Positions 2,257 through 62,116 of a DNA stretch of 64,000 bases are shown piece after piece. Both the position numbers and the translations under genes were made by a program. Each line of letters starts with the position of its first letter. Position 1 is the first letter of the stretch. Source of the DNA: a virus (lineage: Duplodnaviria > Heunggongvirae > Uroviricota > Caudoviricetes). Location: positions 26,738 to 90,737 of IMG/VR virus record IMGVR_UViG_3300041955_001975, one strand, 5' to 3'. The notes below the pieces were generated by a model. That model made no database searches, had not been told where the DNA came from, and worked only from the letters and a program-made list of their open reading frames with translations.

Positions 2257-3015
2257 TCAGAAGTTGGTGAAGAGAATCTCGACCTTGTTGCTGCACTCGC
2301 CCCGACGCTCGCAGGCTCCTCGGCGGGGTGTGTCCCGCGTGATCCGGTTCCAATGCGGGTAGAAACTCGCAGCAGCTAGCGACTCGGACACGATCACCTT
2401 GGCACTGGCCGAGTTCAGCAATTCGACCATTGCCGGATAGTCAACGCGGTAGCGATACTCGTCCTCGTGGCCCACGTAGGGCGGATCGACGTAGATCAGG
2501 GCCTCGGAGTCGTTGTAGACTCGCTGGATTGCGGCCAGTGCGTCCTCGTGCAACAGCGCGACCCCGCGCATCCGGTTGGCGGCCGGGAGCACTCGTTGGA
2601 ACCAGTCGGCCCAGACCTCGCTCTTGGGCTTGTGCGGGGCTGAGGACTTATCCAGCGACCAAGTTGAATTGTTGCCGTTGCCGCAGTAGAACTGCGTTCC
2701 CTGGGCCATCAGCAGCACGGCCTGGTCGATGTCGCCCACCGGCTGCCCGCGCCAATTGGCGGCCGTATAGGGCGTGGCCCAGATCAGCGCAGCCAATTGC
2801 TCCGGCTGCGACTGGATTGCTTTCCACATGCCCATGACCACCTCGTCCAGATCGTTGACGATCTCGGCAAACGAGCGGGGCTTTGCCAACAGCACGGCGG
2901 CCGAGCCACAGCAGGGCTCCATGTAGACCCGGTGCTGCGGGAAGTGGGAAACAACCCACTTGGCGATGGACGCCTTGCCGCCGTACTGGCGATAGGTGAT
3001 CTTGGGCGTGGCCAT
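2257..3015 (-). CDS. Dam-type (D12 class) DNA N6-adenine methyltransferase
   Basis: N-terminal YGGK motif (RQYGGKASIAKW) and motif IV IYVDPPYV, typical of the D12/Dam family. Confidence 0.7.
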   Translation of the reverse strand: MATPKITYRQYGGKASIAKWVVSHFPQHRVYMEPCCGSAAVLLAKPRSFAEIVNDLDEVVMGMWKAIQSQPEQLAALIWATPYTAANWRGQPVGDIDQAVLLMAQGTQFYCGNGNNSTWSLDKSSAPHKPKSEVWADWFQRVLPAANRMRGVALLHEDALAAIQRVYNDSEALIYVDPPYVGHEDEYRYRVDYPAMVELLNSASAKVIVSESLAAASFYPHWNRITRDTPRRGACERRGECSNKVEILFTNF

Positions 3016-4518: not shown

Positions 4519-5025
4519 TCACTGCCTCGTAGCCGTCGTACAGAACGCCCCCTTCAGCGAGCAGCACTGCAACGCTCGGGCATTCCCCTTGCCGTAGGCC
4601 AGTAACACCGATGGGCCGCCGGCGTTGCCCTTGGCCCGGGTCCCGTTCATCTGGTAGAAATGCAACCGTCCTTCCAGGAACAGGACCCCATCCGCGTTGG
4701 CCCAGACATGCTCGAAGAACATCGCCGTTTCCGTTCTGGCGAAGATCAAAGCGATCCCGTTGCCGTGCTGACCCAGCCGGCCGAGCCATCGTCCCGTCTC
4801 CTGACCGTAGGGCGGATTGAGCCACACGCGGCCGAACCACGGCAGTTGCAGGCCGTCCTGTGGCGGAGTGTAATGGGACTTGGCTGTCGCCCACGGCTGG
4901 CCGGGGGCGGCGCAAGGGTCAAGATCAAACGGCCCAAGCGCCTTGATGATCTCCGGCGGCGTCAGCCAGCAGTCAGTTGCCCCTTGGAACGCGCGAGTAT
5001 GGCTGCCGATGCCTGTCTTCGTCAT
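4519..5025 (-). CDS. phage Dam-like DNA N6-adenine methyltransferase (NPPY)
   Basis: WLNPPYGQ catalytic motif in a ~170-aa protein typical of the phage N6A_Met/Dam family. Start MTKT overlaps the upstream stop as ATGA. Confidence 0.65.
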   Translation of the reverse strand: MTKTGIGSHTRAFQGATDCWLTPPEIIKALGPFDLDPCAAPGQPWATAKSHYTPPQDGLQLPWFGRVWLNPPYGQETGRWLGRLGQHGNGIALIFARTETAMFFEHVWANADGVLFLEGRLHFYQMNGTRAKGNAGGPSVLLAYGKGNARALQCCSLKGAFCTTATRQ

Positions 5026-6005
5026 GGGGCGACTTGCCGGGTTCGTTGGATTCGTTGAAGTGCTTGCTCGTACACGGCCTGCTTGATCTCGGCGGCAAAT
5101 GCCATCCGCCCGGCTTCCACCGCCGCGATCGAGGCGGTGCAAAGGCCGCCGAACGGCTCCCACACCACGTCGCCCGGGTCCGAGCAACTTTTCACGAGCA
5201 ACTGCATGAGGGCGAGCGGCTTCTGATTGGGATGGACCACGCTGCCTTGGACCTTGATCCGTTCCTTGCCGCGCACTGCCGGGACGTGCCAGACGTTGGT
5301 TACCCCGGCCTCACAGTGAAACTTCCCGCGAAGCTGCTCCCACTGTGAAGCCGCCAGGCTCGTCTCGCCGTCAACCGAAAAGTAGGGACGGCCCCAGGGA
5401 TCGCCGTGCGTGTTGGCGTAGTCCACCAGCCGTTGGAACACGTCGGGCGGCGGGAAGTACCACAGATAATCGCCGGTGAGATACTTGCGGGTGGCGGCGT
5501 TCTTCACGCCGCACGCCTTGTTCGACTTGGCGAGAGGCAGTCCGGTCCGCCGCCATTCCGCCCGGAGCCACTGCTGGGCAGAAAGCGGGGAGTCCGCGAC
5601 GGCCAATCGAAACTGGGGTTGCCGGACGTAGTGGACGCAGACCTCGGTGACGACGGGGAACTTCCGCAGCGTTTGCGTGTTCGTGTTGCCGGCGACGTGG
5701 GCCAGACCCTTGTCCCAGACGCAGCACGCCCGGTAAATCCAGCCCGCGTCCCGCAAGACGGGGTGGACTTCCGCCCAGCCGACCTCCGTGTTCCAAAACC
5801 AAAGCGTCGTGCTCGCGGTAGCACGGCGGGTCCATGCCGCAACGTGCGGCTCGTACCACTGGCGAAGTTGCTCCGGCCGTGCGAGATCGCCGTCGTAGCC
5901 ACTGAGACCGTAGGGCCCATCGGAAACGATGAGCGCCGGCGAGTCCCACTGATCGTAGTAGATCAGGGCGTCTCCGCAGCAGAGATGGATCAAGGGATCT
6001 CTCAT
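5022..6005 (-). CDS. DNA methyltransferase (N6_N4 MTase, beta class)
   Basis: N-terminal SDGPYG motif IV-like region. C-terminal HPNQKP...VWEPFGGLCTASIAA motif I region typical of PF01555-type enzymes. Start set at MRDPLIH. Confidence 0.6.
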   Translation of the reverse strand: MRDPLIHLCCGDALIYYDQWDSPALIVSDGPYGLSGYDGDLARPEQLRQWYEPHVAAWTRRATASTTLWFWNTEVGWAEVHPVLRDAGWIYRACCVWDKGLAHVAGNTNTQTLRKFPVVTEVCVHYVRQPQFRLAVADSPLSAQQWLRAEWRRTGLPLAKSNKACGVKNAATRKYLTGDYLWYFPPPDVFQRLVDYANTHGDPWGRPYFSVDGETSLAASQWEQLRGKFHCEAGVTNVWHVPAVRGKERIKVQGSVVHPNQKPLALMQLLVKSCSDPGDVVWEPFGGLCTASIAAVEAGRMAFAAEIKQAVYEQALQRIQRTRQVAP

Positions 6006-6089
6006 AACAAGTAGGCAAGGAAGGCAATGACAGGCCCGTAGGCTGCCAGAATCGGGACGGTGATGACCCAAGACGCGAAGGCGGAGACG

Positions 6090-13294: not shown

Positions 13295-14158
13295 TTAAGA
13301 GTTGCAAACCGACCCTTTCTGGTTTTCGTCCTCGATGTCTTTTATCAACGCGGCGTCGTCAATCTCGGCCATCGCCCAGGCCAGAGCCCGGGTAGGGAGC
13401 CCGTTGACCCCGGCCTCAAACATTCTGAGGATCATCGCATTGATCTGCTCCTTGGTGCGGCGAAACCGGAAGCGACGTTTGTACGTTTCATCGAGTCCCG
13501 GCAACTTGCCGCTCGATCCCCGCCGCCGGGCATCCGCGGTTTTCTCGGCAAGGAACAACTGCTCCTCCGGCGCTTCCTTGTACAGCCGCTCGATCGAGAC
13601 CTGCGACAAGAGGCCGTTGGCAGCCATCTCTTGGATTTCGACCGGGAGATCCAGCAGCCGGAAGCGTGCCGCGATCCACTTCGTGGGCCGATGCAGTTCC
13701 TTATTGGCCTGCCGAAGCGACACGCCGTCAGGGTACAGACGTTTGAGTGCGATGGCCTCTTGCAGCATGTTCAGGTCTTTCCGCTCAAGATTCTCCGTGA
13801 AGTTGAGCAGGCGGGCCTCGTAGTCCGTCAACTCGTGTCGGACCATCGCCGGAATGTTCGCCCACTTCAGAAAGAACTCGACCGCTCGAAAGCGCCGGTG
13901 GCCGGCGATCAGTCGATAGTCAAAGCCCGAGGGCACAGTGCCCACGACCTCGGCGGTGAGCTGCACCACGACGGGAAAATCGAGGCCCCTTAGTTCGACA
14001 CCCCCTCCCTTCTGGCGAATGCTCTCGGCCAATTCCGAGACCGACTCCAGCGTGAACTGCCCCCGGCAGTTGAAATCGGCATCGTAGTAGATGCCGCTCA
14101 ACGGCAGGGCAAACACGTCATAGTCCTGGAGTCTCTCCGCCACCAGCAGTCTCCTCAA
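13295..14158 (-). CDS. ParB-like nuclease domain protein
   Basis: ParB N-terminal domain signature LIAGHRRFRA. Confidence 0.6.
   Translation of the reverse strand: MRRLLVAERLQDYDVFALPLSGIYYDADFNCRGQFTLESVSELAESIRQKGGGVELRGLDFPVVVQLTAEVVGTVPSGFDYRLIAGHRRFRAVEFFLKWANIPAMVRHELTDYEARLLNFTENLERKDLNMLQEAIALKRLYPDGVSLRQANKELHRPTKWIAARFRLLDLPVEIQEMAANGLLSQVSIERLYKEAPEEQLFLAEKTADARRRGSSGKLPGLDETYKRRFRFRRTKEQINAMILRMFEAGVNGLPTRALAWAMAEIDDAALIKDIEDENQKGSVCNS
13297..13328 (-). promoter_or_regulatory. conserved intergenic motif copy C
   Basis: aagagttgcaaaccgaccctttctggttttcg, 12 nt upstream of the ATG of gene 12916..13284. Confidence 0.45.
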
Positions 14159-14161
14159 CGC

Positions 14162-14938
14162 TCATTCCAGGACGATGTTGTTCGGCGTCGGGCCGTGATC
14201 CCAGTCGTAGACCCGCACCGAGTCGCCGGTGATGTTGACGAAGCTGTTAACCTGGGTACACCAGGAGCCCGAGTTGTAGTACCACTCCCCCTGACGCCCG
14301 GGGGTGTGCGTATGCCCGCCAATCACGATGTCGCACTCGCCGTTGTCCACGGGCTGCTTCAGGCCGGCGATCAGTTCTTGATCTCGCGGCTTCTTGCCCC
14401 AAAGCCACTCGTGGAAGGCGACCATCTTTTCCAGGCTGCCGACAAACAGGTCCTCGATGCTCGATCGCCCCCTCATGGGTCCGCCGTTCTTGTCCTCCAG
14501 CAGCCCCGTGATCGTGGCCAGGATGCGGCTGAAATCGGGCATCTCGTTGGAGCAATACTTATCGGCCTCGTGGCCGTGCATGATCTTGATCCGCCGGCGG
14601 CCGTCATTCAGAACGAATGGACCGCACAAGGTGTCGAATAGCGGGTGATTCAGGAAGTGCGCGCCGATGAAGTGGAGTAGGTCAATGTCGTGGTTGCCCA
14701 CGACGTAAATGGCCTGCATCGCCGCCAGGCGATCCAACAAGGGGCCATAGTGCTCGACCGACCGGCTGAAGTTGCACTGCCAGAGATCGAACAAGTCGCC
14801 CGCAATAATCAGGCGGCCGTGTTGCTGCTCCACGAAGTCCAGAAAGCGATCGAACTGCTGCGGCCGATCGTTCCACGCGAAGCGATCGCGGGGGCCGCCA
14901 TCGCACAGATGCAAGTCAGAGACTACGAAATGATTCAT
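14162..14938 (-). CDS. calcineurin-like metallophosphoesterase
   Basis: Motifs SDLHL, GDLFD, GNHD, GHEAD and GGHTH. Start set at MNHFVV, so it does not overlap the tRNA. Confidence 0.6.
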   Translation of the reverse strand: MNHFVVSDLHLCDGGPRDRFAWNDRPQQFDRFLDFVEQQHGRLIIAGDLFDLWQCNFSRSVEHYGPLLDRLAAMQAIYVVGNHDIDLLHFIGAHFLNHPLFDTLCGPFVLNDGRRRIKIMHGHEADKYCSNEMPDFSRILATITGLLEDKNGGPMRGRSSIEDLFVGSLEKMVAFHEWLWGKKPRDQELIAGLKQPVDNGECDIVIGGHTHTPGRQGEWYYNSGSWCTQVNSFVNITGDSVRVYDWDHGPTPNNIVLE

Positions 14939-14968
14939 CGGTCCTCTCCAGATTACGTAACGCATGAG

Positions 14969-15040
14969 CTGCCAGGGCAGGACTCGAACCTGCAATGACG
15001 CGATTAACAATCGCGGACCTTGCCATTAGGCGACCTGGCA
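14969..15040 (-). tRNA. tRNA-Asn (anticodon GTT)
   Basis: Manual cloverleaf: acceptor TGCCAGG/CCTGGCA, anticodon stem CGCGA/TCGCG with loop TTGTTAA, T-arm GCAGG-TTCGAGT-CCTGC, discriminator G. CCA is not encoded. Confidence 0.6.
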
Positions 15041-20455: not shown

Positions 20456-22419
20456 GTCCGGTACTCCTCGAACTCGCCTTCTTTCGTGGCGGCGTCGTCC
20501 CAATCCACGCCGTCCATCACTTCGCCCATCGTCATCAATTCCAGCTTCCGGTTGGCCCGGATCACTTCGAGCACCCGGCGGTCGCTCGGCAGATGGATCA
20601 GATCGACAATGGTGCAGCCCTTGTTCAAATCCATCGAAATCCGGTGGATTCGGTCTTCCGACTGGACCCGGTACTCAGGTTTCCAGGAATTGGACCAGTA
20701 GACCGCCATCCGGCTTTCAGTGAGTGTGAGGCTCATGCCGCCGGACTCGGGATTGGCAACGAAGGCCACGCGAGGGTTTACCTCCCTGTCGGCCCAGTAG
20801 TCCAAGGGCTCTTCCGTCACGGGCGAGTCATTGTGCGGCAGGACTTGGAAGCTGCCCTGGTCGCAGCGCACTGCGCTCCACCCCTCTTTCTTCACCAGCT
20901 TCACGACTCGATCCACGGAGCCGGTGAACCCGGCGAAGACCACGATGCGTCCCGTCTCCTCGCACTCGTCGAGCAGCATCCTGAGTGCTGCATCCTTCGG
21001 GCAGGCGACTTCGCGCGTCGTGCGGACAATCTTGTCCACTTCCTTCGTACCGCCACACACCGGGCAGGCCGCCGACTGCTGAACCAACCGATCTACGACC
21101 TCATCGGGGAGCAGATCGGTGCCGGGGTAAGACCGCCCCGGGTCTTCCGGGTCCAACCAGATCGTCACCGTGCCGTCCGTGCAGTGCGTACATCGTGTCT
21201 TACCGTCCTTTACCTCGCGGTACTGGAACCCGTCGCTCAACTCCCGCAGGAGTGTCATACCAGTGACCGCATTCGGTGCCGCTTCCACCAGGGCCTTGGC
21301 GACGCGCAGGGTGCTGGCACTCGGCTTGCAAACGATCTGGCGGTAGCGTTTGTCGGGCAGGTTCAGGCAGTCCTTCTTGTGCTTAATGACCACCAGGCCC
21401 TTGAGCCGTTCGTAGAGATAGGCGACCTCATTCTTGCTGGGCGTGAACGGATGGTACTCGGCCGGGTCGGTCAGGCCGTCCAGTTCATGCGTCCCGTCCT
21501 CACGACTCTCGCCGCAGGTGGCGCACTTTGATTCGTCGTCCTTCCAGCCGACTCGCTTCTTGAAGGCGGCAGTCTCAAACTTCTGATCGACCATGAAGGC
21601 CAGGCGTGCCTCCATCGCCTTGGCGCTGCCCTCACGGAGGAATCCAGGCCAGGCAATCTCGCACTGGCTCCACCAGTCCACGGGCGTCTTGGGCGACGGC
21701 GTGCCGGACATCTCCACGACGTAGCCGTGCTCCAGGCCCCACTTCTCGCGGATCATGTCGGCCAGACGTTGCACGGCGCGGGAGCGCTGGCTGCTGTAGT
21801 TCTTCAGCCGGCTGGACTCATCGCAGATCAGGCCGTGCGGCGGCAGTTGGCCCTCGGGCCACTCGTCGATGACGCGCACCAGACCTTCGTAGGTGAAATA
21901 CTGAATGTCGAACTGCTCGGCGGGAAACTTCCAAATGCGGAACTCCCGCTTGACGTTCGGCAGGCTGGTCTTCGGACCGATCCAGAACCAGTCCTGGACG
22001 CCGGAGCGTTCGATCAACTCCTGGGCCGAGAGCGTCTTGCCCGTGCCCATCTCGGCCGCCCACAACTGGTAGTGGTAGGTCAGGCCGGAATCGGTTAGGT
22101 CCATTTGATGGGGCATGAGCGGGCGCTGATACTCATGCCGGACCAGGTCACGATCGAACCAGGCAAATACGTCCTCGCCGCACATCAGCGAAAGCTGGAA
22201 GTTGTTCCGCTGGCAGTCCTCGACCGACCATATCTTCCGCGGATTCTCTTCCTCGAAGCCGTGCCACTTCGATCCCTTCATCGCCTTGATCTCGTCCTTC
22301 AATGAGAAAGGCGACTTGATGAAGAGGATGCGGCCATCGGCTCGCTCGATCGTCGCGGGCACCTTGATAAGGCGACCGCTGCTGGTCCGCGTAACGAGCT
22401 TGAGTTCTTCGATTGCCAT
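20452..22419 (-). CDS. SNF2/DEAD-like ATP-dependent helicase
   Basis: Walker A AAEMGTGKT, DExx box LICDESSRLKN, C-terminal helicase domain, and a Cys-rich insertion (CATCG...CTHCTDG...CPVCGG). Confidence 0.7.
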   Translation of the reverse strand: MAIEELKLVTRTSSGRLIKVPATIERADGRILFIKSPFSLKDEIKAMKGSKWHGFEEENPRKIWSVEDCQRNNFQLSLMCGEDVFAWFDRDLVRHEYQRPLMPHQMDLTDSGLTYHYQLWAAEMGTGKTLSAQELIERSGVQDWFWIGPKTSLPNVKREFRIWKFPAEQFDIQYFTYEGLVRVIDEWPEGQLPPHGLICDESSRLKNYSSQRSRAVQRLADMIREKWGLEHGYVVEMSGTPSPKTPVDWWSQCEIAWPGFLREGSAKAMEARLAFMVDQKFETAAFKKRVGWKDDESKCATCGESREDGTHELDGLTDPAEYHPFTPSKNEVAYLYERLKGLVVIKHKKDCLNLPDKRYRQIVCKPSASTLRVAKALVEAAPNAVTGMTLLRELSDGFQYREVKDGKTRCTHCTDGTVTIWLDPEDPGRSYPGTDLLPDEVVDRLVQQSAACPVCGGTKEVDKIVRTTREVACPKDAALRMLLDECEETGRIVVFAGFTGSVDRVVKLVKKEGWSAVRCDQGSFQVLPHNDSPVTEEPLDYWADREVNPRVAFVANPESGGMSLTLTESRMAVYWSNSWKPEYRVQSEDRIHRISMDLNKGCTIVDLIHLPSDRRVLEVIRANRKLELMTMGEVMDGVDWDDAATKEGEFEEYRT

Positions 22420-23657
22420 TAGCGTGATGTGGTGTTGAGGCGCGAGACGGCGATGTCGCAGTTATGAACGTCCAGTTCGACGCCGATGCACTCGCGCCCC
22501 AGGCGCTTTGCAGCCACGAGGGTCGAGCCGCTGCCGGCAAAGGGATCAAGAACCACGCCGCCGGTCGGCGTGGACAAGAGTGTGAGCAAGTAGTCCATCA
22601 GCGCCAGCGGCTTCACCGTGGGGTGGTCGTTGTCCTCGCCGCGCTCTTTCTTCGTGGCCTTGGCGCAGTAAAAGAACCGGCTCGCACCGCCGGTGTCCCC
22701 GAAGCCCGTCAGGACACTACCTGTCCGATTGGCGTCAGACCCGTAGATGCCGCTGTCACCGGACGTGCCCTTACGTGTGCCGCTCGGCTTGCCGCTGGTG
22801 AGCGTGCCGGTCTGGGCGTCCAACTGCGCGGCGGCCTTTTCGTCCAAGAGGAGATTCGCAGGCCAACGGCCCTTGGTGGATTCGATGAACTGGGAACCTT
22901 TCTTCTCGGCAGACTGCTTGATGCGCTCGCCCTGTTTGCCGTGGAAGGTCGTGCCGTTGCGGTCCGCGTTGTACTTGTAGCCGGGGTTGTCGCCGATGCG
23001 GCAGGCGTCGATGTTCATGCCCGCCACGCCCCACGTCTCGGCGTTGTGGGCGATCGTGCCGTCCAGGGGCTTCATGGCCAGGATGATCGGTTCCCAGGCA
23101 GGCTTCAGGGCGAAGGCCCAGCCGGTCCACGCCTCAGCCAACGCGGTGGCCGGAGCCGTGATCTGCGCGGCGCGGAGCCGAGCGTCGGTGCCGGGGGCAT
23201 GAAGCCCATTGCCACCGCCGTAGCACCCGTTCCCCTTCCCCTCGTGCAGGTGATAGCCAGGGCGATCCAGCTTGTCGCCGATAACCTCACGCTGGGCACC
23301 CTTGGCCTTGTCGATCAGCTTGCCCACGTCGGCCGACTTCGGGAAACCCTGGCCCTGGAGCCACATCAGGGTGTCACGAATCTCCCAGCCGGCGTCTTCA
23401 ATGGCACAAACCAACCGGTGCCACGTCCGCGTGCCGCCGAACGCCGCCAGCAACGCACCGGGCTTACAGACCCTCGCAATGGCCCTCCAATAATCCGGGC
23501 CCGGCACGGCACTGTCCCAGCCCTCTCCCATGAAGGAGAGGCCGTAGGGAGGGTCCGTCACTACGTAGTCCGCGCACGCCTCGGGCAGGCCGGGGAGCAC
23601 ATTGCGCAGATCACCGTCGTAGAGGGCGATGTTGCCGTCTGTGTGGTAAGGTATCAA
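22419..23657 (-). CDS. DNA methyltransferase (N6_N4 MTase, DPPY)
   Basis: Motif IV VVTDPPYG at the N-terminus. Motif I HPTVKP...VLDPFAGSGSTLVAA at the C-terminus. Uses a TTG start. Confidence 0.7.
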   Translation of the reverse strand: MIPYHTDGNIALYDGDLRNVLPGLPEACADYVVTDPPYGLSFMGEGWDSAVPGPDYWRAIARVCKPGALLAAFGGTRTWHRLVCAIEDAGWEIRDTLMWLQGQGFPKSADVGKLIDKAKGAQREVIGDKLDRPGYHLHEGKGNGCYGGGNGLHAPGTDARLRAAQITAPATALAEAWTGWAFALKPAWEPIILAMKPLDGTIAHNAETWGVAGMNIDACRIGDNPGYKYNADRNGTTFHGKQGERIKQSAEKKGSQFIESTKGRWPANLLLDEKAAAQLDAQTGTLTSGKPSGTRKGTSGDSGIYGSDANRTGSVLTGFGDTGGASRFFYCAKATKKERGEDNDHPTVKPLALMDYLLTLLSTPTGGVVLDPFAGSGSTLVAAKRLGRECIGVELDVHNCDIAVSRLNTTSR

Positions 23658-24424: not shown

Positions 24425-24452
24425 GGCCGCAGGCGGTGCGCACCGCCTGCGG
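24425..24452. repeat. 28-bp perfect palindrome
   Basis: GCCGCAGGCGGTGC|GCACCGCCTGCGGC, intergenic between genes 24619..25359 and 23745..24272. Confidence 0.5.
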
Positions 24453-24618
24453 CTGCGGACGAAAGACCCACCGAGAGTGAGCGTGCCCTGTGGCAGAGGC
24501 CCGATGGGTTTACTGATCTACTCGCCCATGATGCACGTCACCGTCGAACGGGAGCGGTGCAGCGAGTGTGTTGACCCTGCCGGCGGCCTTGTGGCTGATC
24601 CGGCAGGGAGCCGATGCG

Positions 24619-25450: not shown

Positions 25451-26359
25451 TCATGGTTCGGTCTCCTCGGTAAAGTGCCTCCTCATACGCTCTCGTAGCT
25501 TTCCTCTCTGCTCTTCGAGACTCTTGGCGTCGAGGTGCGTGATCCACTCCAGGCAGGCGTTCCAACCGTCCACCGCCGTCCGTGCATTTCTGGCGGCGAG
25601 CATCATGGGCCCGGCTTCAGGTGTCTCTTTCTCGGTCAGAACTTCTCGCAAGTTGCGAAGGTGGGCAACGGGCGTGAACTCGTTGTTGAACAACACGTCC
25701 AGCTTCCCTTGCCGTGCCGCCTCGCGCTGCTGCTTGATGAAGGCAGCGACCGTGACCTTGAACACGTGGACGGGGGCCGTCCTGGCAAGATCAAGAAACC
25801 GGTGCTGTTGGCTGCGAAGGACGCGAGACAGCACGTAGCCCGACATCAAAGGGATCTCCCCGCGGTCCACGGCCTTCTGGACCTCGGGTTGCAGACGCAG
25901 GAGACCCAGTTGCTCTCCGATCCAATGCGGACTCTTGTGGATCAGCCCTTGTAGTCGCGCGTGCGACATGCCAGGGTTGGCGTCCAGGATCTTCTTCAAC
26001 TGCCTTGCAAAGTCGGTTTGCTTGGTTGTCGGCCGTATGGCATTGGCTTGAATCTGCGCGGCCACGACCATTTCATCGGTCATGCCGTACCGGACCAGGC
26101 AGGGCACAGGCGATAGCTCCAACTCCTGGTAAGCGGTGTAGCGGTACATGCCGTCCACCACTTCCCACTTCCCGGGAAGACGGGGCGAGGGCCTGACGCA
26201 GATCGAGTTCAGCGGGCCGTTGGCCGCCAGCGAGTCTCGCAACTCGATGTACTCCAGCGACTCCTTTTCCACCAATCGGAGCAGCAGGCGGGTCTCGTGG
26301 ATGTCGCAGAGCGGAATGTCACGGGACTCGATCTTCACGGTGGACTCCGGGATCAACAA
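25451..26359 (-). CDS. ParB/sulfiredoxin-like N-terminal domain protein
   Basis: ParB-like block ICVRPSPRLPGKWEVVDGMYRYTA. Second ParB-like gene in this module; TTG start. Confidence 0.5.
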   Translation of the reverse strand: MLIPESTVKIESRDIPLCDIHETRLLLRLVEKESLEYIELRDSLAANGPLNSICVRPSPRLPGKWEVVDGMYRYTAYQELELSPVPCLVRYGMTDEMVVAAQIQANAIRPTTKQTDFARQLKKILDANPGMSHARLQGLIHKSPHWIGEQLGLLRLQPEVQKAVDRGEIPLMSGYVLSRVLRSQQHRFLDLARTAPVHVFKVTVAAFIKQQREAARQGKLDVLFNNEFTPVAHLRNLREVLTEKETPEAGPMMLAARNARTAVDGWNACLEWITHLDAKSLEEQRGKLRERMRRHFTEETEP

Positions 26360-26457
26360 CTACACCTACAGGAGATGTCAAAAACGGGCGGTTTTTTCAG
26401 AAAAGGGGCACCGTTTGTGAAAAAAACACTCGTATCTGACATCTCCTGTAGGTGTAG
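26360..26457. promoter_or_regulatory. 21-bp perfect inverted repeat pair with 56-bp AT-richer spacer (candidate origin/operator/centromere-like site)
   Basis: CTACACCTACAGGAGATGTCA ... TGACATCTCCTGTAGGTGTAG, in the divergent region between the ParB-like (minus) and primase (plus) genes. Confidence 0.5.
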
Positions 26458-26530
26458 CTATCCCAGCGTCTTCCGCGCCGGAAGACCTTCCACACTGAGC
26501 GCGTGTAAACGCATCTATCAGGGAAGCGAA

Positions 26531-29251
26531 ATGAAAGTCACCGAAGCCATCAAGGTCTTCCTCAACGCCAGGAAGTTGCCCGCCAACGCCGATCTGGTCG
26601 ATCGCTGGAGCGCCAGCATAGAGACCCAGGTCAACGTCGCCGCCGGCAATGGCGAGCCGGTCGAGGGCAAACGGACGACGTACAGCGATGGAATCAACGA
26701 ATGGTGGAACATTCGCTTGCCGAAGAACGCCAACAGCGACCCGTCCTGGGACGACTACGAGCTTCGGTTCCCTTTCGAGTTACACGCCGAGGGCATTGGC
26801 TGCACGGGCTGGGACTGGGCAGCACGCCGATCTCGCTGGTGCGCATTCGATTTTGACAGTCTCACCACGCACGCCAGGGGCGTCGGCGTCACCGACGAGG
26901 AACTGGAGAAGATCAAGCTGGCGGCCGAGGCCCTACCCTATGTTGAGACCCGCCGCAGCACGGGCGGCAGCGGTGTCCATCTCTACGTCTACTTCGACGC
27001 GGCGGGCGTCCCCACAGACAACCACACCGAGCACGCCGCGCTGGCCAGGTGCGTACTGGGAATGATGTCTTCGGACACCGGCTTCGACTTTGCCTCGCAG
27101 ATCGACTGCTGCGGAGGGGTCATGTGGCTGTGGCACCGCAAGATGACCGCCGAGAACGGCGGCCTGTCTCTCGTGAAGCCGGCCACCAAGACGCTCTCCG
27201 TCTCCGATCTGCCGGCCAACTGGCACGATCACATTGAAGTCGTGACCAAAAAGCGGAGCAAAGTGCGTGTAAACGAGGTGGCCGAGGACGACCTCGACCC
27301 GTTCGAGGCCCTGGCAACATCCCGCAAGATCATTCCCCTGGACGACGGCCACAAGGCTCAGATCGAAAGCCTGATGCGGTCTGGCTTCACCACGCTTTGG
27401 ATCGCCGACCACCACCTGCTCCAGACGCACACCTGCGCACTGGCCAAGCTGATGGGTGAGGCTGACCTGAAGCTGGTCGGCTACTTCCAGACCATCTCGG
27501 AAGGCAAGAATCCGGGGTCACCCAACTGTTTCCTTTTCCCGCTCCCCAGCGGGGCGTGGAAGGTCTACCGTTTCTCGCCCGGGATCGCCGAGGCCGAGAC
27601 CTGGACCCAGGACGGCAATGGGTGGACGACCTGCTACTTCAACCGCACACCGGACCTTTCCGTCGCCGCCAAGGCCCACGGTGCCCTCGAAGACCCGGAC
27701 AAGATAGGCGAGTTCGTATTCCACGATGCTGCAAGCGCTCTGGAGGCGGCCGAGGCCCTGGGCCAGAAAATCACCCTCCTGGACGAGATGATGGACCGCG
27801 AAACCCGGCTCAAGTCCGGCAGGGACGGCCGGCTCGTCGTCGAGATCGAGAAGCGGGAAGAAGACGCCCCCATGCCGGGGTGGTTCGCCAAGAAGGGCAA
27901 GTGGTCTCGCATCTTCGACGTGAAGACCGACTCCAAGAAGTCCGACGAACTGGGCTTTTCGGAGCACGACAATGTTCTCCGCGAACTGGAGACACCCGCC
28001 AAGGAATTCGCCGGCTGGGTCATCCACAAGGGTGGCGAGTGGGTCCGCGAGCCGCCGGCCAACGTGAAGATGCTCTTGCAGAGCCGCGGTTTCGACAAAC
28101 CCGAGGCCGAGGCCATCATGGGCGGCGCGATCGGCAAGAGCTGGCGGCTGGTGAACCTGCCCTTCCACGAAGAGTATCCCGGCGGCCGGCAATGGAACAT
28201 GGACGCCGCCCAGTTGCGCTATGAGCCGGCAATCCTGGGCGATGAAGAGCAGCCGAGCCACGCACATTGGGACAAGGTTCTCAACCATATCGGCCAGGAG
28301 TTGAACGCCGGGCTGCGTGAGTCTCCCTGGGCGCAGAAGGCAGGCATGAAGACAGGGGCTCAGTATCTTTTGGCCTGGATCGCCTGCATGATCCGCTACC
28401 CTTTCTCGCCGCTGCCCTACCTGTTCCTCTACGGACCGGAGAACAGCGGCAAGTCGATCTTCCACGAGGCCATCGCCCTCTTGATGACCAAGGGCTGCGT
28501 GCCGGCCGACCGGGCATTGACCAGCGCCAGCGACTTCAACGGGGAACTGGCCAACTGCATCCTGGCGGTCGTCGAAGAAAAGGACATCTCCAAGGCCAAG
28601 GGGGCGCTGGCCAAGATCAAGGAATGGGTCACGGCCCGCAACCTGTCCATCCGCAAGATGCGGACCGACAGCTACACGCAGCCCAACACGACCCACTGGG
28701 TCCAATGCGCCAACCGCCGGGAGAACTGCCCCATCTTTCCCGGCGACACGCGGATCACCGTGATCCATGTGCCGGACCTTCTGCCGGACCAGGAAATCCC
28801 CAAGGAGAAGCTGATCGAGCGTCTTACGGAAGAGGCCCAGCACTTCATGTACAGCCTGATGAACATGGAACTGCCGGAGGTGTTGGGTCGGCTGCGGCTC
28901 CCCATCGTGATTACCGACAGCAAGCTGCGGAGCGAGGAAGACAACCGCGATGCGTTCGAGGAATTCCTTGCCGACAACTGCTTCGAGGCCCCGGGGGCCT
29001 TGATGCCTTTCAAGGACTTGTTCGACAAGTTCTACGAGTCGCTGACCGTCAACGAGAAGGGCGAGTGGACGAAGCAGAGGGCGATCAAGAAGCTGCCCTC
29101 ACGGTTCCCCACAGGAAACGGTCCCGGCAACAAGAAGTATGTTGCCAACATCTCCCTTGAAGAAGTGACCACTCCCGACGCAAAGCCCCTTCTGTACTTG
29201 AACGGCAAGTTCGTTACACAGCCGCAAGAGCCATCGGAGGCCCAGCCATGA
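26531..29251 (+). CDS. bifunctional primase-polymerase (AEP) / D5-like SF3 helicase
   Basis: N-terminal prim-pol block (GSGVHLYVYFD). C-terminal P-loop LYGPENSGKS typical of P4/D5-type primase-helicases. Start set at MKVTEAIK (906 aa). Confidence 0.75.
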   Translation: MKVTEAIKVFLNARKLPANADLVDRWSASIETQVNVAAGNGEPVEGKRTTYSDGINEWWNIRLPKNANSDPSWDDYELRFPFELHAEGIGCTGWDWAARRSRWCAFDFDSLTTHARGVGVTDEELEKIKLAAEALPYVETRRSTGGSGVHLYVYFDAAGVPTDNHTEHAALARCVLGMMSSDTGFDFASQIDCCGGVMWLWHRKMTAENGGLSLVKPATKTLSVSDLPANWHDHIEVVTKKRSKVRVNEVAEDDLDPFEALATSRKIIPLDDGHKAQIESLMRSGFTTLWIADHHLLQTHTCALAKLMGEADLKLVGYFQTISEGKNPGSPNCFLFPLPSGAWKVYRFSPGIAEAETWTQDGNGWTTCYFNRTPDLSVAAKAHGALEDPDKIGEFVFHDAASALEAAEALGQKITLLDEMMDRETRLKSGRDGRLVVEIEKREEDAPMPGWFAKKGKWSRIFDVKTDSKKSDELGFSEHDNVLRELETPAKEFAGWVIHKGGEWVREPPANVKMLLQSRGFDKPEAEAIMGGAIGKSWRLVNLPFHEEYPGGRQWNMDAAQLRYEPAILGDEEQPSHAHWDKVLNHIGQELNAGLRESPWAQKAGMKTGAQYLLAWIACMIRYPFSPLPYLFLYGPENSGKSIFHEAIALLMTKGCVPADRALTSASDFNGELANCILAVVEEKDISKAKGALAKIKEWVTARNLSIRKMRTDSYTQPNTTHWVQCANRRENCPIFPGDTRITVIHVPDLLPDQEIPKEKLIERLTEEAQHFMYSLMNMELPEVLGRLRLPIVITDSKLRSEEDNRDAFEEFLADNCFEAPGALMPFKDLFDKFYESLTVNEKGEWTKQRAIKKLPSRFPTGNGPGNKKYVANISLEEVTTPDAKPLLYLNGKFVTQPQEPSEAQP

Positions 29252-29415: not shown

Positions 29416-29657
29416 TGGCACAATTCATCCCGCTTGGCGGCGCGGTGTATGAAGTCCGCGCGGTGTTGGACATCGGCGACCTGCAACAGTTCGTCGGCGG
29501 CTTCGTGCGATTCTTGGATATCGGCTCGGGGAACCACGTCGTCTGCCACGAGGATGCCGAACTCGTCTACAGCAAGAACGCGCTGGCATCATCCCTATCC
29601 CAGCGGCCCGTTCACGGGCCTGCGATCATCTGTCGAATGAAAGAATTGGAGCTTTGA
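29412..29657 (+). CDS. hypothetical protein
   Basis: Translationally coupled to the upstream ORF. 81 aa. Confidence 0.3.
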   Translation: MMAQFIPLGGAVYEVRAVLDIGDLQQFVGGFVRFLDIGSGNHVVCHEDAELVYSKNALASSLSQRPVHGPAIICRMKELEL

Positions 29658-30115
29658 TGAAGTACAACATGACCGACAGCGGCAAGCGGCAGCAATTCGG
29701 CAGCAACCTCGCCATCCGGGACACCGCGGACGACAAGCCGCGCCCCGACCTGATCTCTCCCTTCGCCGAAGAGCGCCAGGGCCAATGGCTCCGCATGGGG
29801 GCCGCCAAGTATGCCGAACGCAACTGGGAACGCGGAATGCCCTTCACCCGCTGCGTCGCCTCGCTCAAGCGGCACGTCATGCGATACCAGCAGGGCAAGC
29901 GCGACGAGGACCACCTGGCCGCCATCATGTTTAACGCAATGGCCCTGATCCACTACGAGGAGATGATCGAGCGCGGCCTGCTCCCGACCGAACTGAACGA
30001 CATGCCCGTCTACAGCAAGCCGGCGGCCAAAGACAATAAGAGCCGTCGCAGGCCGGCGGCCATGAAGAAACACAATCCGCGCAAGCCGGCCTCCCCCACG
30101 AAGAGACGTAGGTGA
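29654..30115 (+). CDS. hypothetical protein with basic C-terminal tail
   Basis: 153 aa; C-terminus KSRRRPAAMKKHNPRKPASPTKRRR. Confidence 0.35.
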   Translation: MMKYNMTDSGKRQQFGSNLAIRDTADDKPRPDLISPFAEERQGQWLRMGAAKYAERNWERGMPFTRCVASLKRHVMRYQQGKRDEDHLAAIMFNAMALIHYEEMIERGLLPTELNDMPVYSKPAAKDNKSRRRPAAMKKHNPRKPASPTKRRR

Positions 30116-56499: not shown

Positions 56500-58653
56500 C
56501 TAGTCCAAGACTGGAGGACCGAGGAGAATCATCAAGGTGGTCGAAGTCAGGGCGATGCCTACCGGCGCAGTGTAGTCCGATGCACTTGGCGGCCCAATAA
56601 GTAGCTCTCCTGAGACTGTGTCCACGTAGTACCAAGCGCCGGGCGTCAATGAAGCACCGTTAGAAGTGACCGCTTCCCATTGCGCCGCAGTCAAGGTCAA
56701 CTGCCCCCACACTGCCACACTGCCGGTCGCATTATTGGCACAGGTTGCCGTCATCAGGCCGACAGGGAAGTTGTTCTTTTCGAGACTGCTACTGGCTACG
56801 GCCGCAAAGAGACCCGTGCCTATCTCGTAGTACACCACCTGGCCTATCGTCAAACTGCCGCCGCTGCCATTGAGAAGACTGACTGTTACCAAAGTCGGTC
56901 CAGACACCCCGGTTGCTCCGGTAGCCCCGGTGGTTCCAACCCCAGTCGGGCCCGTAGGCCCCGTGGCTCCAACTGCACCGCCGCTGCCTGCCGGGCCGCT
57001 CGGACCACTCGGTCCACTGGGTCCGGTGTTGCCTGTCGTACCTGTTGCACCTGTCACTCCCGTATTGCCCGTTGTGCCTGTTGCACCTGTCGTGCCCTTA
57101 GCCCCGCTCGGACCGCTGGGTCCACTCGGGCCCGTCGCGCCTGTGGCTCCGGTGACGCCGACACCTGTCGGGCCAGTCGCGCCCACATCGCCGTCGCTGC
57201 CTGCGGGACCGCTTGGGCCGCTGGGTCCACTCGGGCCTGTCGCGCCTGTAGCTCCGGTGACGCCGACACCGGTCGGGCCAGTCGCGCCCACACCGCCGTC
57301 GCTGCCTGCGGGACCGCTCGGGCCGCTGGCTCCACTCGGGCCCGTCGCGCCTGTAGCTCCGGTGACGCCGACACCGGTCGGGCCCGTCGCGCCCACACCG
57401 CCGTCGCTGCCTGCGGGACCGCTCGGGCCGCTGGCTCCACTCGGGCCCGTCGCGCCTGTGGCTCCGGTGACGCCGACACCTGTCGGGCCAGTCGCGCCCA
57501 CACCGCCGTCGCTGCCTGCGGGACCGCTCGGGCCGCTGGCTCCACTCGGGCCCGTCGCGCCTGTGGCTCCGGTGACGCCGACACCTGTCGGGCCAGTCGC
57601 GCCCACACCGCCGTCGCTGCCTGCGGGACCGCTCGGGCCGCTGGGTCCGCTCGGACCCGTTGCGCCTGTAGCTCCGGTGACACCGACGCCGGTCGGGCCA
57701 GTCGCGCCCACAACGCCGTCACTGCCTGCGGGACCGCTCGGGCCACTGGGTCCGCTCGGACCCGTTGCGCCTGTAGCTCCGGTGACACCGACACCAGTCG
57801 GGCCGGTCGCACCCACACCGCCATCGCTGCCTGCGGGACCGCTCGGGCCGCTGGGTCCGCTCGGACCCGTTGCGCCTGTAGCTCCGGTGACACCGACACC
57901 AGTCGGGCCGGTCGCGCCCACACCGCCATCGCTGCCTGCGGGACCGCTCGGGCCGCTGGGTCCACTCGGCCCAGTCTCGCCTGTGGCTCCGGTGACGCCA
58001 ACACCAGTCGGGCCGGTCGCGCCCACATCGCCGTCACTGCCTGTGGAACCGCTCGGGCCGCTGGGTCCGCTCGGACCCGTCGCGCCTGTAGCTCCGGTGA
58101 CGCCGACACCTATCGGGCCAGTCGCGCCCACACCGCCGTCGCTGCCTGCGGGACCGCTCGGGCCGCTGGCTCCACTCGGGCCTGTCGCGCCCGTGGCTCC
58201 GGTGACGCCGACACCAGTCGGACCAGTGGCCCCAGTATCGCCCGTGCTGCCCGTGGCTCCACTCGGTCCTGTTGCACCAGTGGGCCCGGTCGAACCCATG
58301 ACCCCTGTGGCCCCGATCCCGGCAACATCACCTGGAATGCCCTGGGGGCCAGTGGGACCCGTCGCGCCTGTAGCTCCGGTGACGCCAGCGCCAGTCGGGC
58401 CGGTAGCACCCGTCGGTCCATAACGACCTAAAGGTCCAATCGGCCCCGTCGCGCCTGTGGGACCTGGCACCCCCGTGGCACCTTGAGTGCCCGTCGCGCC
58501 TACGACCCCTTGTATGCCCGGCGCGCCAGTTGGCCCTGTAGCGCCCGTAACCCCTTGAGGTCCGGTCGCACCGGTAGACCCAGTCGCCGGCCCTGTCGGA
58601 CCAGTGGGGCCTTCTTCACCGGGAGTGCTCATATAGAAATCCATGCTTCGCAC
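56500..58653 (-). CDS. collagen-like triple-helix repeat protein with globular C-terminal domain
   Basis: About 550 aa of Gly-X-Y repeats, including eleven 35-aa units ([35 protein letters not shown]). Non-collagenous C-terminus of about 150 aa. Confidence 0.75.
57080..58230. repeat. 105-bp tandem repeat array (about 11 units) inside the collagen-like gene
   Basis: Unit ...gcccacaccgccgtcgctgcctgcgggaccgctcgggccgctgg... recurs at 105-bp spacing (for example 57286 and 57391). It encodes the 35-aa Gly-X-Y unit. Confidence 0.7.
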
Positions 58654-58668
58654 TCCCGTTCACGGCTA

Positions 58669-59577
58669 TTACTGCGGCGTGAACACCTGCCAAGTCAAGT
58701 TACCTGCACCGTCTGCACTCAAGTAGTAGCACTTATTGGTTCCCACAGGGGCGGTCGGCAAACCGGCACTCGGGCCAGTTGGACCGGTGGCCCCTGTCGC
58801 ACCGGGAGGACCGCCGCTCGGGCCACTCGGGCCAGTCGGACCCGTCGCACCAATCTGGCCTGTCGCGCCGCGTGGACCAGTCGGACCAGTGGCTCCAGTC
58901 AAACCTGTGTCACCGACATCGCCGACATCGCCTTGCGGTCCAGTCGGGCCGTAGGGACCTGTTGGACCCGTCGCGCCAGTGACTCCCGTTGAGCCTGTCG
59001 CGCCTGTGGCTCCCGCACCAGTCGGCCCAGTTGCGCCGTCAGAACCAGCCGGTCCCGTCGCGCCCGTGGCTCCCGTGGCTCCCGCGCCCGTTGGCCCTGT
59101 CGGGCCAGCAGGACCTGTCGGTCCTGTGGCACCATCAGCGCCTGTCAGGCCGCTCGGTCCAGTAGGTCCGCCACTCGGGCCAGTCGCACCGATCGGACCG
59201 CTAGGGCCGGTCGCGCCATCGGGTCCTGTCTCGCCGATCTCACCTTGCGAACCCGAAGGACCAGAGGGACCTTGCGAGCCAGACGGCCCGCTTGGGCCAG
59301 TGGCACCATCAGCCCCAGTTGGACCAGAAGGACCATAGAGACCCTGCGAGCCGGAGGGCCCCGTGGCCCCTGTCTCGCCTTGTGGGCCGCTCGGTCCAGT
59401 CGCGCCAGTGGCTCCCGCGCCGGTCGGGCCCGTGGGGCCGATCGACCCGGTCGGACCAATGCGTCCAGAAGGACCGGAAGGGCCAGTGGCTCCAGTCGCC
59501 CCAACCGGGCCGCCCGATGGGCCGCTCGGGCCAGTCGGGCCTTGAGCCCCCAGAGGTTCGCTGTACGTGATCCCCAT
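58669..59577 (-). CDS. collagen-like Gly-X-Y repeat protein
   Basis: [26 protein letters not shown]... throughout. Short C-terminal domain ...[22 protein letters not shown]. Confidence 0.7.
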
Positions 59578-61843: not shown

Positions 61844-62116
61844 CTAGAAGTCGCAACAGTCGTGGAGCAGCTCGGAAAGACGCCTGTAGGTGTAGCCGTC
61901 GTAGGCCGAGAGGCGGTAGAGCACTTCCTGGAACGCATTCGGGTAGGTGTCCGCTGACGGCGATGCGGGCGGTGACTGCGCGGCCAAGGCGGCCGTGAGC
62001 GCCGTCTCCTCGGCGGCCAGCGCCGAGAGAAGCAGATAGGCAACGTCACCGCCGTTGTCCTGGCTGCTGCTGTCCAAAGCGAGCGTGTTGAGAACCGTCT
62101 GGTAGCACTGGGTCAT
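61844..62116 (-). CDS. hypothetical protein between terminase and portal
   Basis: 90 aa, lambda gpW-like position. Confidence 0.3.
   Translation of the reverse strand: MTQCYQTVLNTLALDSSSQDNGGDVAYLLLSALAAEETALTAALAAQSPPASPSADTYPNAFQEVLYRLSAYDGYTYRRLSELLHDCCDF

Follow-up and report, generated by a model that had tools for sequence, protein, structure and literature searches.

A mirror-symmetric inverted repeat between divergent ParB-like and primase-helicase genes of an uncultured (pro)phage lineage, a candidate replication origin

In satellite phage P4, the alpha protein is a fusion of a primase and a helicase, the C-terminal part of which binds repeats in its own origin. The oriL of herpes simplex virus (HSV) is a long perfect palindrome, and herpes-type palindromic origins stay symmetric while diverging between species. 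Operators of KorB lie beside divergent promoters, and temperate phages have compact, mirror-arranged early control regions from which two operons run in opposite directions (PL-OL and PR-OR in lambda; face-to-face or back-to-back switches in P2, 186 and Mu). As to its location, HSV oriL is found between the divergent ul29 and ul30 genes (PMC6769088). The Pri-Rep proteins of the staphylococcal islands (SaPIs) are self-loading helicases with a C-terminal winged-helix domain that binds oppositely pointing repeats flanking an AT-rich centre, and one hexamer is thought to load per side (PMC9371898).

The element described here comprises 98 bases (26360-26457), is mirror-symmetric and AT-rich, and lies between a ParB-like gene and a primase-helicase gene of the window, i.e. 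the whole 64-kb stretch of viral DNA that was analysed. Its architecture resembles that of the SaPI Pri-Rep origins and of herpesvirus oriL, which is one reason for considering it a possible replication origin.

Anatomy of the element and its genomic setting

A preliminary description of this DNA reported perfect 21-bp inverted repeats around a 56-bp spacer, and this was confirmed, the two 21-nt arms being exact reverse complements of each other (Table 1). Allowing up to 3 mismatches, the 21-mer is matched twice in the window, both times by the arms themselves, with 0.01 matches expected by chance and two matches reached in 0/100 shuffles. Among perfect inverted repeats within 320 nt, the element is the longest of the 64 kb; in 100 block shuffles, the longest perfect arm had a mean length of 12.4 nt and a maximum of 15 nt. 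Chance or artefact as the source of the palindrome is ruled out by these shuffles and by its presence in about 80 independent assemblies. A third arm-like site near the terminase gene was also considered and looks like a coding coincidence once traced into the relatives.

The symmetry extends inward, giving arms of 47 nt that are 85% complementary around a 4-nt centre, with the centre of symmetry at 26408.5. Folded as single-stranded DNA, the element reaches -36 kcal/mol (z = -12). The spacer had been described as AT-richer than the genome, and indeed has a GC content of 43% (24/56) compared to 62.6% for the window; the most AT-rich 100-bp stretch of the window consists of the 100 bp from 26351. 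The left linker of the window already differs from that of a 99%-identical relative (L020). The helix formed by the two inner boxes (helix 4 of the alignment structure) is 95.6% paired, with mirrored double changes in 6/7 pairs.

Table 1. Positions of the palindrome, its parts and the neighbouring features in the window
Feature	Position	Strand	Remarks
ParB/Noc/KorB-family gene	25451..26338	-	Leads the leftward block; start codon 21 nt from the left arm
Left outer arm	26360..26380		CTACACCTACAGGAGATGTCA; outer part with the clade-conserved box ACACCTAYA; aligned with 41 relatives; mirrored covariation
Left linker	26381..26391		AAAACGGGCGG; non-mirror-symmetric, fast-evolving; starts with a conserved A-run abutting the arm
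Inner inverted-repeat box, left half	26392..26399		TTTTTTCA; alignment structure helix 4
Central core	26400..26417		Poorly conserved; symmetry axis between 26408 and 26409
Inner inverted-repeat box, right half	26418..26425		TGAAAAAA; alignment and pair covariation
Right linker	26426..26436		ACACTCGTATC; non-mirror-symmetric
Right outer arm	26437..26457		TGACATCTCCTGTAGGTGTAG; exact reverse complement of the left arm; mirrored covariation
Perfect hairpin	26468..26486	+	GTCTTCCG-CGC-CGGAAGAC; leader between right arm and primase gene
12-bp palindrome	26501..26512		GCGTGTAAACGC; family pattern GCGTnTAnACGC; candidate site of a ParB-like protein
AEP-type primase fused to D5/SF3-type helicase, 906 aa	26531..29251	+	Leads the rightward block; candidate initiator

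The divergent arrangement of a ParB-like and a primase-helicase gene around the element, also part of the earlier description, was found to be correct. The left-hand gene starts with a GTG at 26338, with GGAG 6 nt upstream. Its product is a genuine ParB/Spo0J/Noc/KorB-family protein with an N-domain and an HTH (Pfam ParB_N; match to the Spo0J/ParB/Noc profile with E = 7e-21), in which a GxxRxxA-like motif is kept as GMYRYTA. Its AlphaFold model has a pLDDT of 85, with Noc, ParB and KorB as the top Foldseek matches. A second, more canonical ParB-like gene is present at 13295-14158. The right-hand gene, with its ATG at 26531, is the sole primase-helicase gene. It was assigned based on a DUF5906/D5-type helicase, the PHROG annotation 'DNA primase' and a match to PDB 6k9c. 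The long N-terminal part of the protein has the invariant residues D107, D109 and H150 in a DxD ... GGGxH context, which we take to be the motifs of an AEP primase. For the C-terminus, with 4 homologues retrieved, the AlphaFold model (pLDDT 45) is too poor to show a DNA-binding fold.

The window represents a siphovirus-like genome. Between 63.8 and about 32 kb, the structural genes are oriented leftward and encode the terminase, portal, major head, major tail and tape measure proteins as well as fibres and collagen-repeat proteins. The rightward block is short (26.5 to 31 kb) and encodes the primase-helicase, a MazZ-like diphosphohydrolase and a DnaQ-like exonuclease. The other leftward block, of 26 kb, contains both ParB-like genes together with those for four DNA methyltransferases, an SNF2 helicase, an exonuclease, a family A polymerase and a ligase. 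The position of the palindrome is the sole point of divergence between the two gene blocks.

No cultured relatives were found by megablast. A tblastn search against cultured phages gave only 25-30% identity over the helicase part of the primase and no match for the ParB-like protein. One 99%-identical locus and about 20 more distant ones were found on contigs, in several cases hundreds of kb long, from metagenome-assembled genomes (MAGs) of Pirellulales, Thermoguttaceae and other Planctomycetota. Since the related loci are situated in such contigs, the window comes from a (pro)phage of Planctomycetota.

Conservation and mirrored evolution among relatives

In total, 123 loci encoding relatives of the primase were collected, and for 106 of them the upstream DNA covered extends 250 nt or more from the primase start. 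Of these 106, 85 have perfect inverted arms of 14 nt or longer at this junction. In the main clade, the arms measure 14-39 nt and the spacers 4-57 bp. A distant clade has arms of 17-46 nt around 120-300 bp of AT-rich (34-40% GC) non-coding DNA; a small ORF within these longer spacers was looked for, and none is conserved.

For the statistics of mirrored changes, 42 distinct elements of the main clade were aligned. Complementary bases occupy 96.1% of the pair cells, compared to 69.9% in shuffles (0/500), and mirrored double changes are seen in 255 cells where 76.5 are expected (0/500). Such changes affect 22/24 pairs. Slid controls do not exceed 50%. One-sided (wobble) changes are found in 9 cells (manual tally), against the 255 double changes. 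As these one-sided changes are nearly absent, the symmetry appears to be maintained at the DNA level and is not like that of an RNA stem.

The alignment reveals two concentric symmetric tiers, an outer arm and an inner TTTTYCA ... TGRAAAA box. The outer arm is built, in order, of ACACCTAYA, 8-10 variable bases, CC and an A-run. The 8-11-nt linkers between the tiers are non-symmetric and the centre is poorly conserved. Between genomes, the identity of the arms is 0.58-0.76, compared to about 0.5-0.7 for the third codon positions of the primase gene and 0.82-0.93 for positions 1 and 2, with close to random values for the linkers (0.32-0.48) and the centre (0.25-0.43). Arm sequences diverge widely across genomes yet mirror each other within each genome. 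Judging from the alignment, the conserved property is mainly symmetry together with a few boxes, and not sequence.

Four loci (L069, L080, L076 and L040) have almost fully perfect palindromes, and in one subclade the mirror similarity extends into both leaders, which indicates arm-to-arm copying. The two tiers separated by non-symmetric linkers, as they appear in the aligned elements, argue for selected blocks over passive homogenisation of the whole stretch.

On its left side, the palindrome is adjoined by a ParB-like gene in nearly all loci that carry it. Loci L108 and L117 possess a palindrome of the same build beside the primase gene, with a left gene unrelated to ParB and no ParB-like gene in the sequence covered around the locus. 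Ten loci encode a primase homologue that is co-directional or integrase-linked and have neither a ParB-like gene nor a long palindrome; the palindrome form therefore accompanies the divergent junction, and a primase gene alone is not enough. Several of the ParB-less elements carry clusters of short, element-specific repeats in both orientations up to 400 nt upstream of the primase gene. Within 400 nt upstream of this gene, 7/8 copies of ACCGGAAGCGC are located in L110, 5/5 copies of TGTCGGG in L099, 4/7 copies of GTGGAAC in L026 and 4/5 copies of GGAGCGCT in L107. Inserted genes are always found between the palindrome and the primase gene, being an HNH endonuclease gene in eight loci and an insert of about 1 kb in L081.

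The similarity of the arms correlates with the divergence of both the primase (r = 0.67) and the ParB-like protein (r = 0.66). With a first arm alignment, the partial Mantel r was 0.27 (p = 0.001) for the primase compared to 0.08 for ParB; with a better arm alignment, the partial r was 0.18 compared to 0.12. The best partial correlation with the arms (0.31) was obtained for the fast-evolving primase residues 801-906, at a primase-ParB collinearity of 0.94. Because the divergence of the two proteins is collinear to this extent (r = 0.94), co-variation leaves primase and ParB inseparable.

To the right of the element, a perfect hairpin is located in the primase leader (Table 1), and relatives have a hairpin at the equivalent place. 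A role as RNA hairpin was tried and rejected: in the L004 clade it is 80% paired, with weak covariation that is not significant. The 12-bp palindrome GCGTGTAAACGC, 44 nt to the right of the right arm, is single-copy in the window (chance 0.04). Among the 85 loci, 45 have a palindrome of the GCGTnTAnACGC type that begins 23-53 nt beyond the right arm; in some relatives it is 18-20 bp long. Where an HNH gene was inserted before the primase gene, this motif remains with the long palindrome. We take GCGTGTAAACGC to have the size and form of a ParB/Noc/KorB-type site and, judged on these sequence features, it seems a better candidate for the ParB site than the 21-nt arms.

Candidate origin function and alternative readings

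The preliminary description left the choice between a replication origin, a parS-like centromere and a dimeric-repressor operator. Of these, the origin is tentatively preferred here, at slightly short of an even chance: based on sequence and on analogy with described systems, the palindrome might act as origin and as the cognate site at which the self-loading primase-helicase is loaded, in overlap with two divergent early promoters. This is proposed because the element is single-copy, surpasses every other inverted repeat of the window in length and every other 100-bp stretch in AT content, and is situated beside the gene of the candidate initiator, because related primases elsewhere carry their own upstream repeat arrays, and because L108 and L117 retain the palindrome by the primase gene despite a non-ParB left neighbour. 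The right arm ends 73 nt upstream of the primase-helicase gene, and about 80 relatives have the same adjacency. Repeats in opposite orientation around an AT-rich centre are present as well (arms and inner boxes, with the 43% GC core). Several short iterons (5-8 nt) per side are absent, one long arm and one inner box being found instead. That the arms track the primase slightly better than ParB might offer weak support.

Other observations count against an origin. The arms drift near the synonymous rate, which is unusual for a sequence-specific protein site. There are primase loci lacking ParB that are also devoid of the long palindrome, and the cumulative GC skew has no clear extremum at 26.4 kb.

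Starting from the observed anatomy, conservation, mirrored evolution and association with the primase, we infer binding, melting, loading and every other functional step. The element would consist of two copies of a directional module facing away from each other, each made up, going outward, of an inner TGRAAAA box, a free linker, a T-run and an arm of about 21 bp ending in TRTAGGTGT. The initiator would bind one module per side, probably via its fast-evolving C-terminal part. The A/T-tract core between the modules, presumably the easiest-melting DNA of the genome, would then open, two helicase hexamers would be loaded in opposite directions and the fused AEP primase would begin synthesis. The ParB-like and primase operons would be transcribed outward from in or beside the element, which may aid opening. 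The ParB-like protein would more probably act on the separate GCGTGTAAACGC and tune expression. Symmetry combined with a drifting sequence might result from selection for two equivalent sites or for the ability to form a hairpin. Another possibility might be that the symmetry is kept up by arm-to-arm copying, i.e. template switching at quasi-palindromes.

The divergent promoters are almost certainly located inside or against the palindrome. With no more than 21 nt between the left arm and the first codon of the ParB-like gene (2-31 nt in relatives), the leftward promoter or leader should lie within the palindrome, which places the element in the divergent early control region, at least as a part of it. 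As this promoter overlaps the palindrome anyway, a purely transcriptional role explains the position equally well. Mirror-image promoter, leader or operator modules would then drive and co-regulate both blocks (leftward the ParB-like protein, methylases, helicase and polymerase; rightward the primase and the MazZ-like and DnaQ-like proteins). The arms would lie close to the promoters or in the DNA transcribed first, with RNA polymerase and/or a phage regulator (e.g. a lysogenic repressor) binding there, and their identity would be upheld by copying between closely spaced inverted repeats. As the whole explanation this is possible though rather unlikely, and it is the chief rival of the origin. 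In line with it, besides the short distance to the ParB start, the long palindrome occurs only at divergent blocks and is absent where the primase is part of a co-directional operon, and the HNH and 1-kb inserts always sit on the primase side of the palindrome, as would be expected for the head of an operon. The nearly perfect palindromes of four loci and the mirrored leaders of one subclade are signs of the copying that it invokes. A conserved TTG, preceded by a T-run, stands at a fixed place in the arms; it has no -10 at 16-18 bp.

Against a purely transcriptional role, a sigma-70 consensus scan of the element gave no -35/-10 pair with workable spacing in either orientation, nor an intrinsic terminator, and patterns of -35/-10, sigma-54, ECF and T7-like promoters fitted by hand in both orientations gave no consistent spacing. 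In the literature search, no Planctomycetes promoter consensus and no description of this element were found. Divergent phage promoters are known and, to our knowledge, do without perfect identity over 21-46 bp. The arm sequence occurs nowhere else in the window as a promoter or operator, and the non-symmetric linkers between symmetric tiers are not expected from passive homogenisation. In addition, related primases elsewhere have iteron-like arrays upstream, and not promoter duplications. A multi-copy operator or the promoter of a phage polymerase was rejected, both the 21-mer and the clade motif being found only at this site. When IMG/VR was scanned with a 14-mer of the L004-clade arm, the family contigs contained, among the matches listed, only the two arms, and there were many chance matches. 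As for the dimeric-repressor operator put forward earlier, its geometry is unsuitable: the centres of the arms are 77 bp apart (about 45 to more than 300 bp in relatives), and inspection of the alignment gave no consistent internal dyad within the arms.

A structure-based version of the origin, in which DNA secondary structure itself would be conserved, is judged unlikely. The origin would form hairpins or cruciforms, its symmetry being strict and its sequence free, and the AEP-primase/SF3-helicase would recognise extruded or unwound hairpins, load two hexamers and prime. The element would evolve by mirrored, near-neutral drift and would be the phage counterpart of herpesvirus oriL/OriS*.

The parS-like centromere proposed earlier for the 21-nt arms is poorly supported, and it is improbable that the arms are a nucleation site of the ParB-like protein, whether in partition or in silencing with CTP-dependent clamp loading. 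The arms would have to be brought together by bending of the AT-rich centre, as in P1 parS with IHF. The neighbour is a true family member, with its HTH and E value of 7e-21 to Spo0J and with the retained GMYRYTA motif, and its gene is left-adjacent in nearly all palindrome loci. ParB/Noc/KorB-family proteins recognise contiguous palindromes of 13-16 bp. This is at odds with arms that are separated by 56 bp in the window and by 4-300 bp in relatives and that show no internal dyad symmetry, and also the better-fitting palindrome of 12-20 bp lies 44 nt away. The palindromes of L108 and L117 are retained beside a non-ParB neighbour, and a Pfam scan of 40 ORFs of the window, which may be part of a larger element, gave no ParA. 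Moreover, a centromere is not needed since these elements appear integrated in chromosomes.

Symmetry at the RNA level is less probable still. A transcript across the palindrome, likeliest leftward from a promoter to the right of the element, would form a hairpin with a 21-bp stem that would serve the ParB-like operon as a site where RNase III cuts, or where stability or translation is controlled. With 20 bp or more, a perfect stem has the size of an RNase III substrate. The isolated mismatches in the whole element, read on the + strand, are A.C, equivalent to G.U in RNA of the minus strand, in 18 cases, compared to 3 for G.T. This bias is, however, largely due to one shared position in related genomes and vanishes within the arms, with about 16 A.C and 11 G.U cells (manual tally). 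The rarity of one-sided changes relative to double ones is unlike typical RNA stems, and the spacers of 120-300 nt in the distant clade make a single hairpin unlikely. Rfam 15, at the gathering score, has no match for the element, giving only tRNA-Asn in the window and only tRNAs in ten relatives.

The least probable reading, an invertible promoter (inverton) or a recombination or telomere-resolution site (lox/dif-like or protelomerase telRL-like), is largely refuted, as its likeness to invertons (perfect inverted repeats and a short AT-rich segment between divergent operons) and to N15 telRL, a palindrome beside a replication gene, is set against a constant spacer orientation (24 forward and 3 low-scoring, ambiguous cases in 27 close pairs), spacers of 34-57 bp that are too short for invertase synapsis, a centre that is the least symmetric part of the palindrome, opposite to tel, the absence of an invertase, integrase or protelomerase among the 40 scanned ORFs and an element that is intact within prophages of large chromosomal contigs. 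Inversion would change little in any case, because the spacer is itself quasi-symmetric.

The palindrome is a family-wide cis-element, with about 80 natural variants, of an uncultured Planctomycetota (pro)phage lineage without a close cultured relative. If it is an origin, palindrome and primase-helicase would make up a minimal replicon for a phylum with few genetic tools, and the rule of inverted sites around an AT-rich core would reach tailed phages, beyond staphylococcal islands and eukaryotic viruses. It would also be an unusually clean case in which symmetry, and not sequence, is preserved by selection or arm-to-arm copying. In case the hairpin- or cruciform-forming version is true, this would concern Planctomycetota, a phylum without a described phage replication element. 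If the element is only a promoter or operator, it would be of an ordinary kind with an unusual mode of concerted evolution.

Comparison with known systems

As in lambda, P2, 186 and Mu, two early operons diverge from a compact control region. These phages differ in having short palindromic operators in several copies, with the repressor gene inside the region, and none of them has perfect arms of 21-46 bp around an AT-rich core. For the 12-bp motif only, and not for the 21-nt arms, the locus can be compared to KorB-OB of RK2, Noc-NBS and ParB-parS, since the neighbouring protein belongs to the same family and GCGTGTAAACGC lies near the presumed divergent promoters; in contrast to these systems, the locus yielded neither a ParA nor a KorA partner, and the motif does not resemble parS, NBS or OB. 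The alpha protein of P4, with ori and crr, would be analogous as a primase-helicase fusion beside a candidate origin. P4 differs by its octamer iterons in two separated regions, its Toprim-type primase and the lack of a long palindrome.

The palindromic build with an AT-rich centre and flanking inverted (here putative) initiator sites is shared with HSV oriL/oriS and the SV40 and papillomavirus origins, which are used by helicases of the SF3 or origin-binding type. The position between divergently transcribed genes is shared with oriL, where both genes (ul29 and ul30) are replication genes. Those origins belong to eukaryotic viruses and their initiators have unrelated DNA-binding domains, whereas the element described here has an imperfect centre and non-symmetric linkers. 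The likeness is thus architectural, with no sequence homology.

Compared to SaPI, the candidate origin is differently placed and built. The SaPI ori is located just downstream of rep and consists of 6-12 penta- or hexanucleotide iterons, whereas this element is upstream of its primase gene, between divergent genes, and has per side one 21-nt arm and an inner box of 7-8 nt, with arms that are perfect mirror images. This downstream location of SaPI/PICI origins, with many short iterons, counts against the origin reading. Iteron-like clusters as in SaPI are present only in the ParB-less relatives of this phage's primase. Like the SaPI/PICI Pri-Rep systems, the locus encodes a primase fused or coupled to a replicative helicase, which would here likewise be self-loading, next to a cis site that adjoins the initiator gene, and in both cases repeats with element-specific sequences are arranged in opposite orientation around an AT-rich centre.

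A palindromic candidate site and the presumed leader of the primase gene

The 21-nt arms that lie between the ParB-like and primase-helicase genes are followed on the right by a shorter palindrome of 12 bp (see the table), which is plausible as a candidate site bound by the ParB/Noc/KorB-family protein. Among the 85 related loci with a perfect inverted repeat of at least 14 nt upstream of the primase relative, 45 carry the family pattern GCGTnTAnACGC, and its spacing from the right arm is nearly constant. In some relatives the palindrome reaches 18–20 bp, e.g. CAGTGCGTTTATACGCACTG in locus L007, and L001–L003 have an additional copy about 735 nt inside the primase gene.

The right arm is also bordered by a perfect hairpin. 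Relatives have a hairpin of differing sequence at the equivalent place, with weak, non-significant covariation. Eight relatives (L048, L116, L021, L120, L071, L060, L052 and L094) have acquired a free-standing HNH-type endonuclease gene (motif CxxCDNxxCxNPxHL) between the arm palindrome and the primase. It runs in the direction of the primase gene, which it displaces 510–715 nt from the palindrome.

On the left side, a group of loci referred to as the L004 clade (L004, L005, L006, L007, L009, L013, L023, L025, L033, L060, L061, L065, L068, L073 and L094) has an in-frame stretch 5' of the ATGCC at which the ParB-like gene starts, with the consensus peptide V-S-K-F-D-A-D-A-P-M-P. Since this stretch varies chiefly at third codon positions, the ParB-like ORF of these loci may start at a GTG within the left arm (TAGGTGTC), in which case part of the arm would be coding or transcribed.

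Features of the window outside the arms
Feature	Position	Strand	Details
DNA methyltransferase genes (n = 4)	2257-3015, 4519-5187, 5022-6071, 22419-23657	all -	
Second ParB-like gene	13295-14158	-	canonical GHRRFRA motif
tRNA-Asn gene	14968-15040	-	beside second ParB-like gene
28-bp palindrome	24426-24453		perfect, GC-rich, zero spacer; GCCGCAGGCGGTGC|GCACCGCCTGCGGC
Hairpin	26468-26486		perfect, 8-bp stem, 3-nt loop; GTCTTCCG-CGC-CGGAAGAC; directly outside right arm, in presumed primase leader
12-bp palindrome	26501-26512		GCGTGTAAACGC; one copy in window
MazZ-like gene	29654-30115	+	153 aa; primase operon; matches PF18909 (E = 4e-19)
Collagen-repeat stretch	56500-59577		69-75% GC; codes for two proteins with collagen triple-helix repeats (717 and 302 aa); lies between portal and head genes
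Arm-like site	61883-61896	+	CCTGTAGGTGTAGC; third exact copy of the arm's outer 13-14 nt; ~0.002 expected by chance

Arm-like and palindromic sequences elsewhere

The third copy of the outer arm sequence is probably a coding coincidence. It falls within a 90-aa gene (61844-62116, - strand) that separates the gene for the large terminase from that for the portal, and there it codes for Y-T-Y-R; relatives have ACCTAYAAGAAGG (T-Y-K-K) at the equivalent place. In L016/L145, the sole genome comparable at both regions, the terminase-side site and the arms do not match each other. The 28-bp palindrome is located in a 176-bp gap between two leftward genes, without a T-run behind it.

Other genes and assembly breaks

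The tRNA-Asn gene overlaps the 5' end of a mechanically called metallophosphatase ORF (14162-15010), and the true start of this ORF is therefore probably further inside. Relatives, too, have a tRNA 2–3 kb from the ParB-like gene. Of the methyltransferases, four in one phage genome, one is D12-class, one Dam-like and two are N6_N4. The primase of several MAG contigs is found ~28–30 kb from the contig end, approximately the distance from the primase to the collagen-repeat stretch in the window; this stretch may be what breaks short-read assemblies.

Likeness to known systems

The PF18909 match corresponds to the N-terminal domain of dATP/dGTP diphosphohydrolases, and the protein is thus of the MazZ type, which has been described in phages with 2-aminoadenine DNA (Z-genomes). 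The ORFs scanned in the window yielded no PurZ. Some primase homologues in ParB-less contexts (L110/L111, L099, L026, L107 and L034) have clusters of short, element-specific repeats, in both orientations, 0–400 nt upstream. Some of these contexts are integrase-linked and some lie in large chromosomal contigs. The clusters look like iterons.
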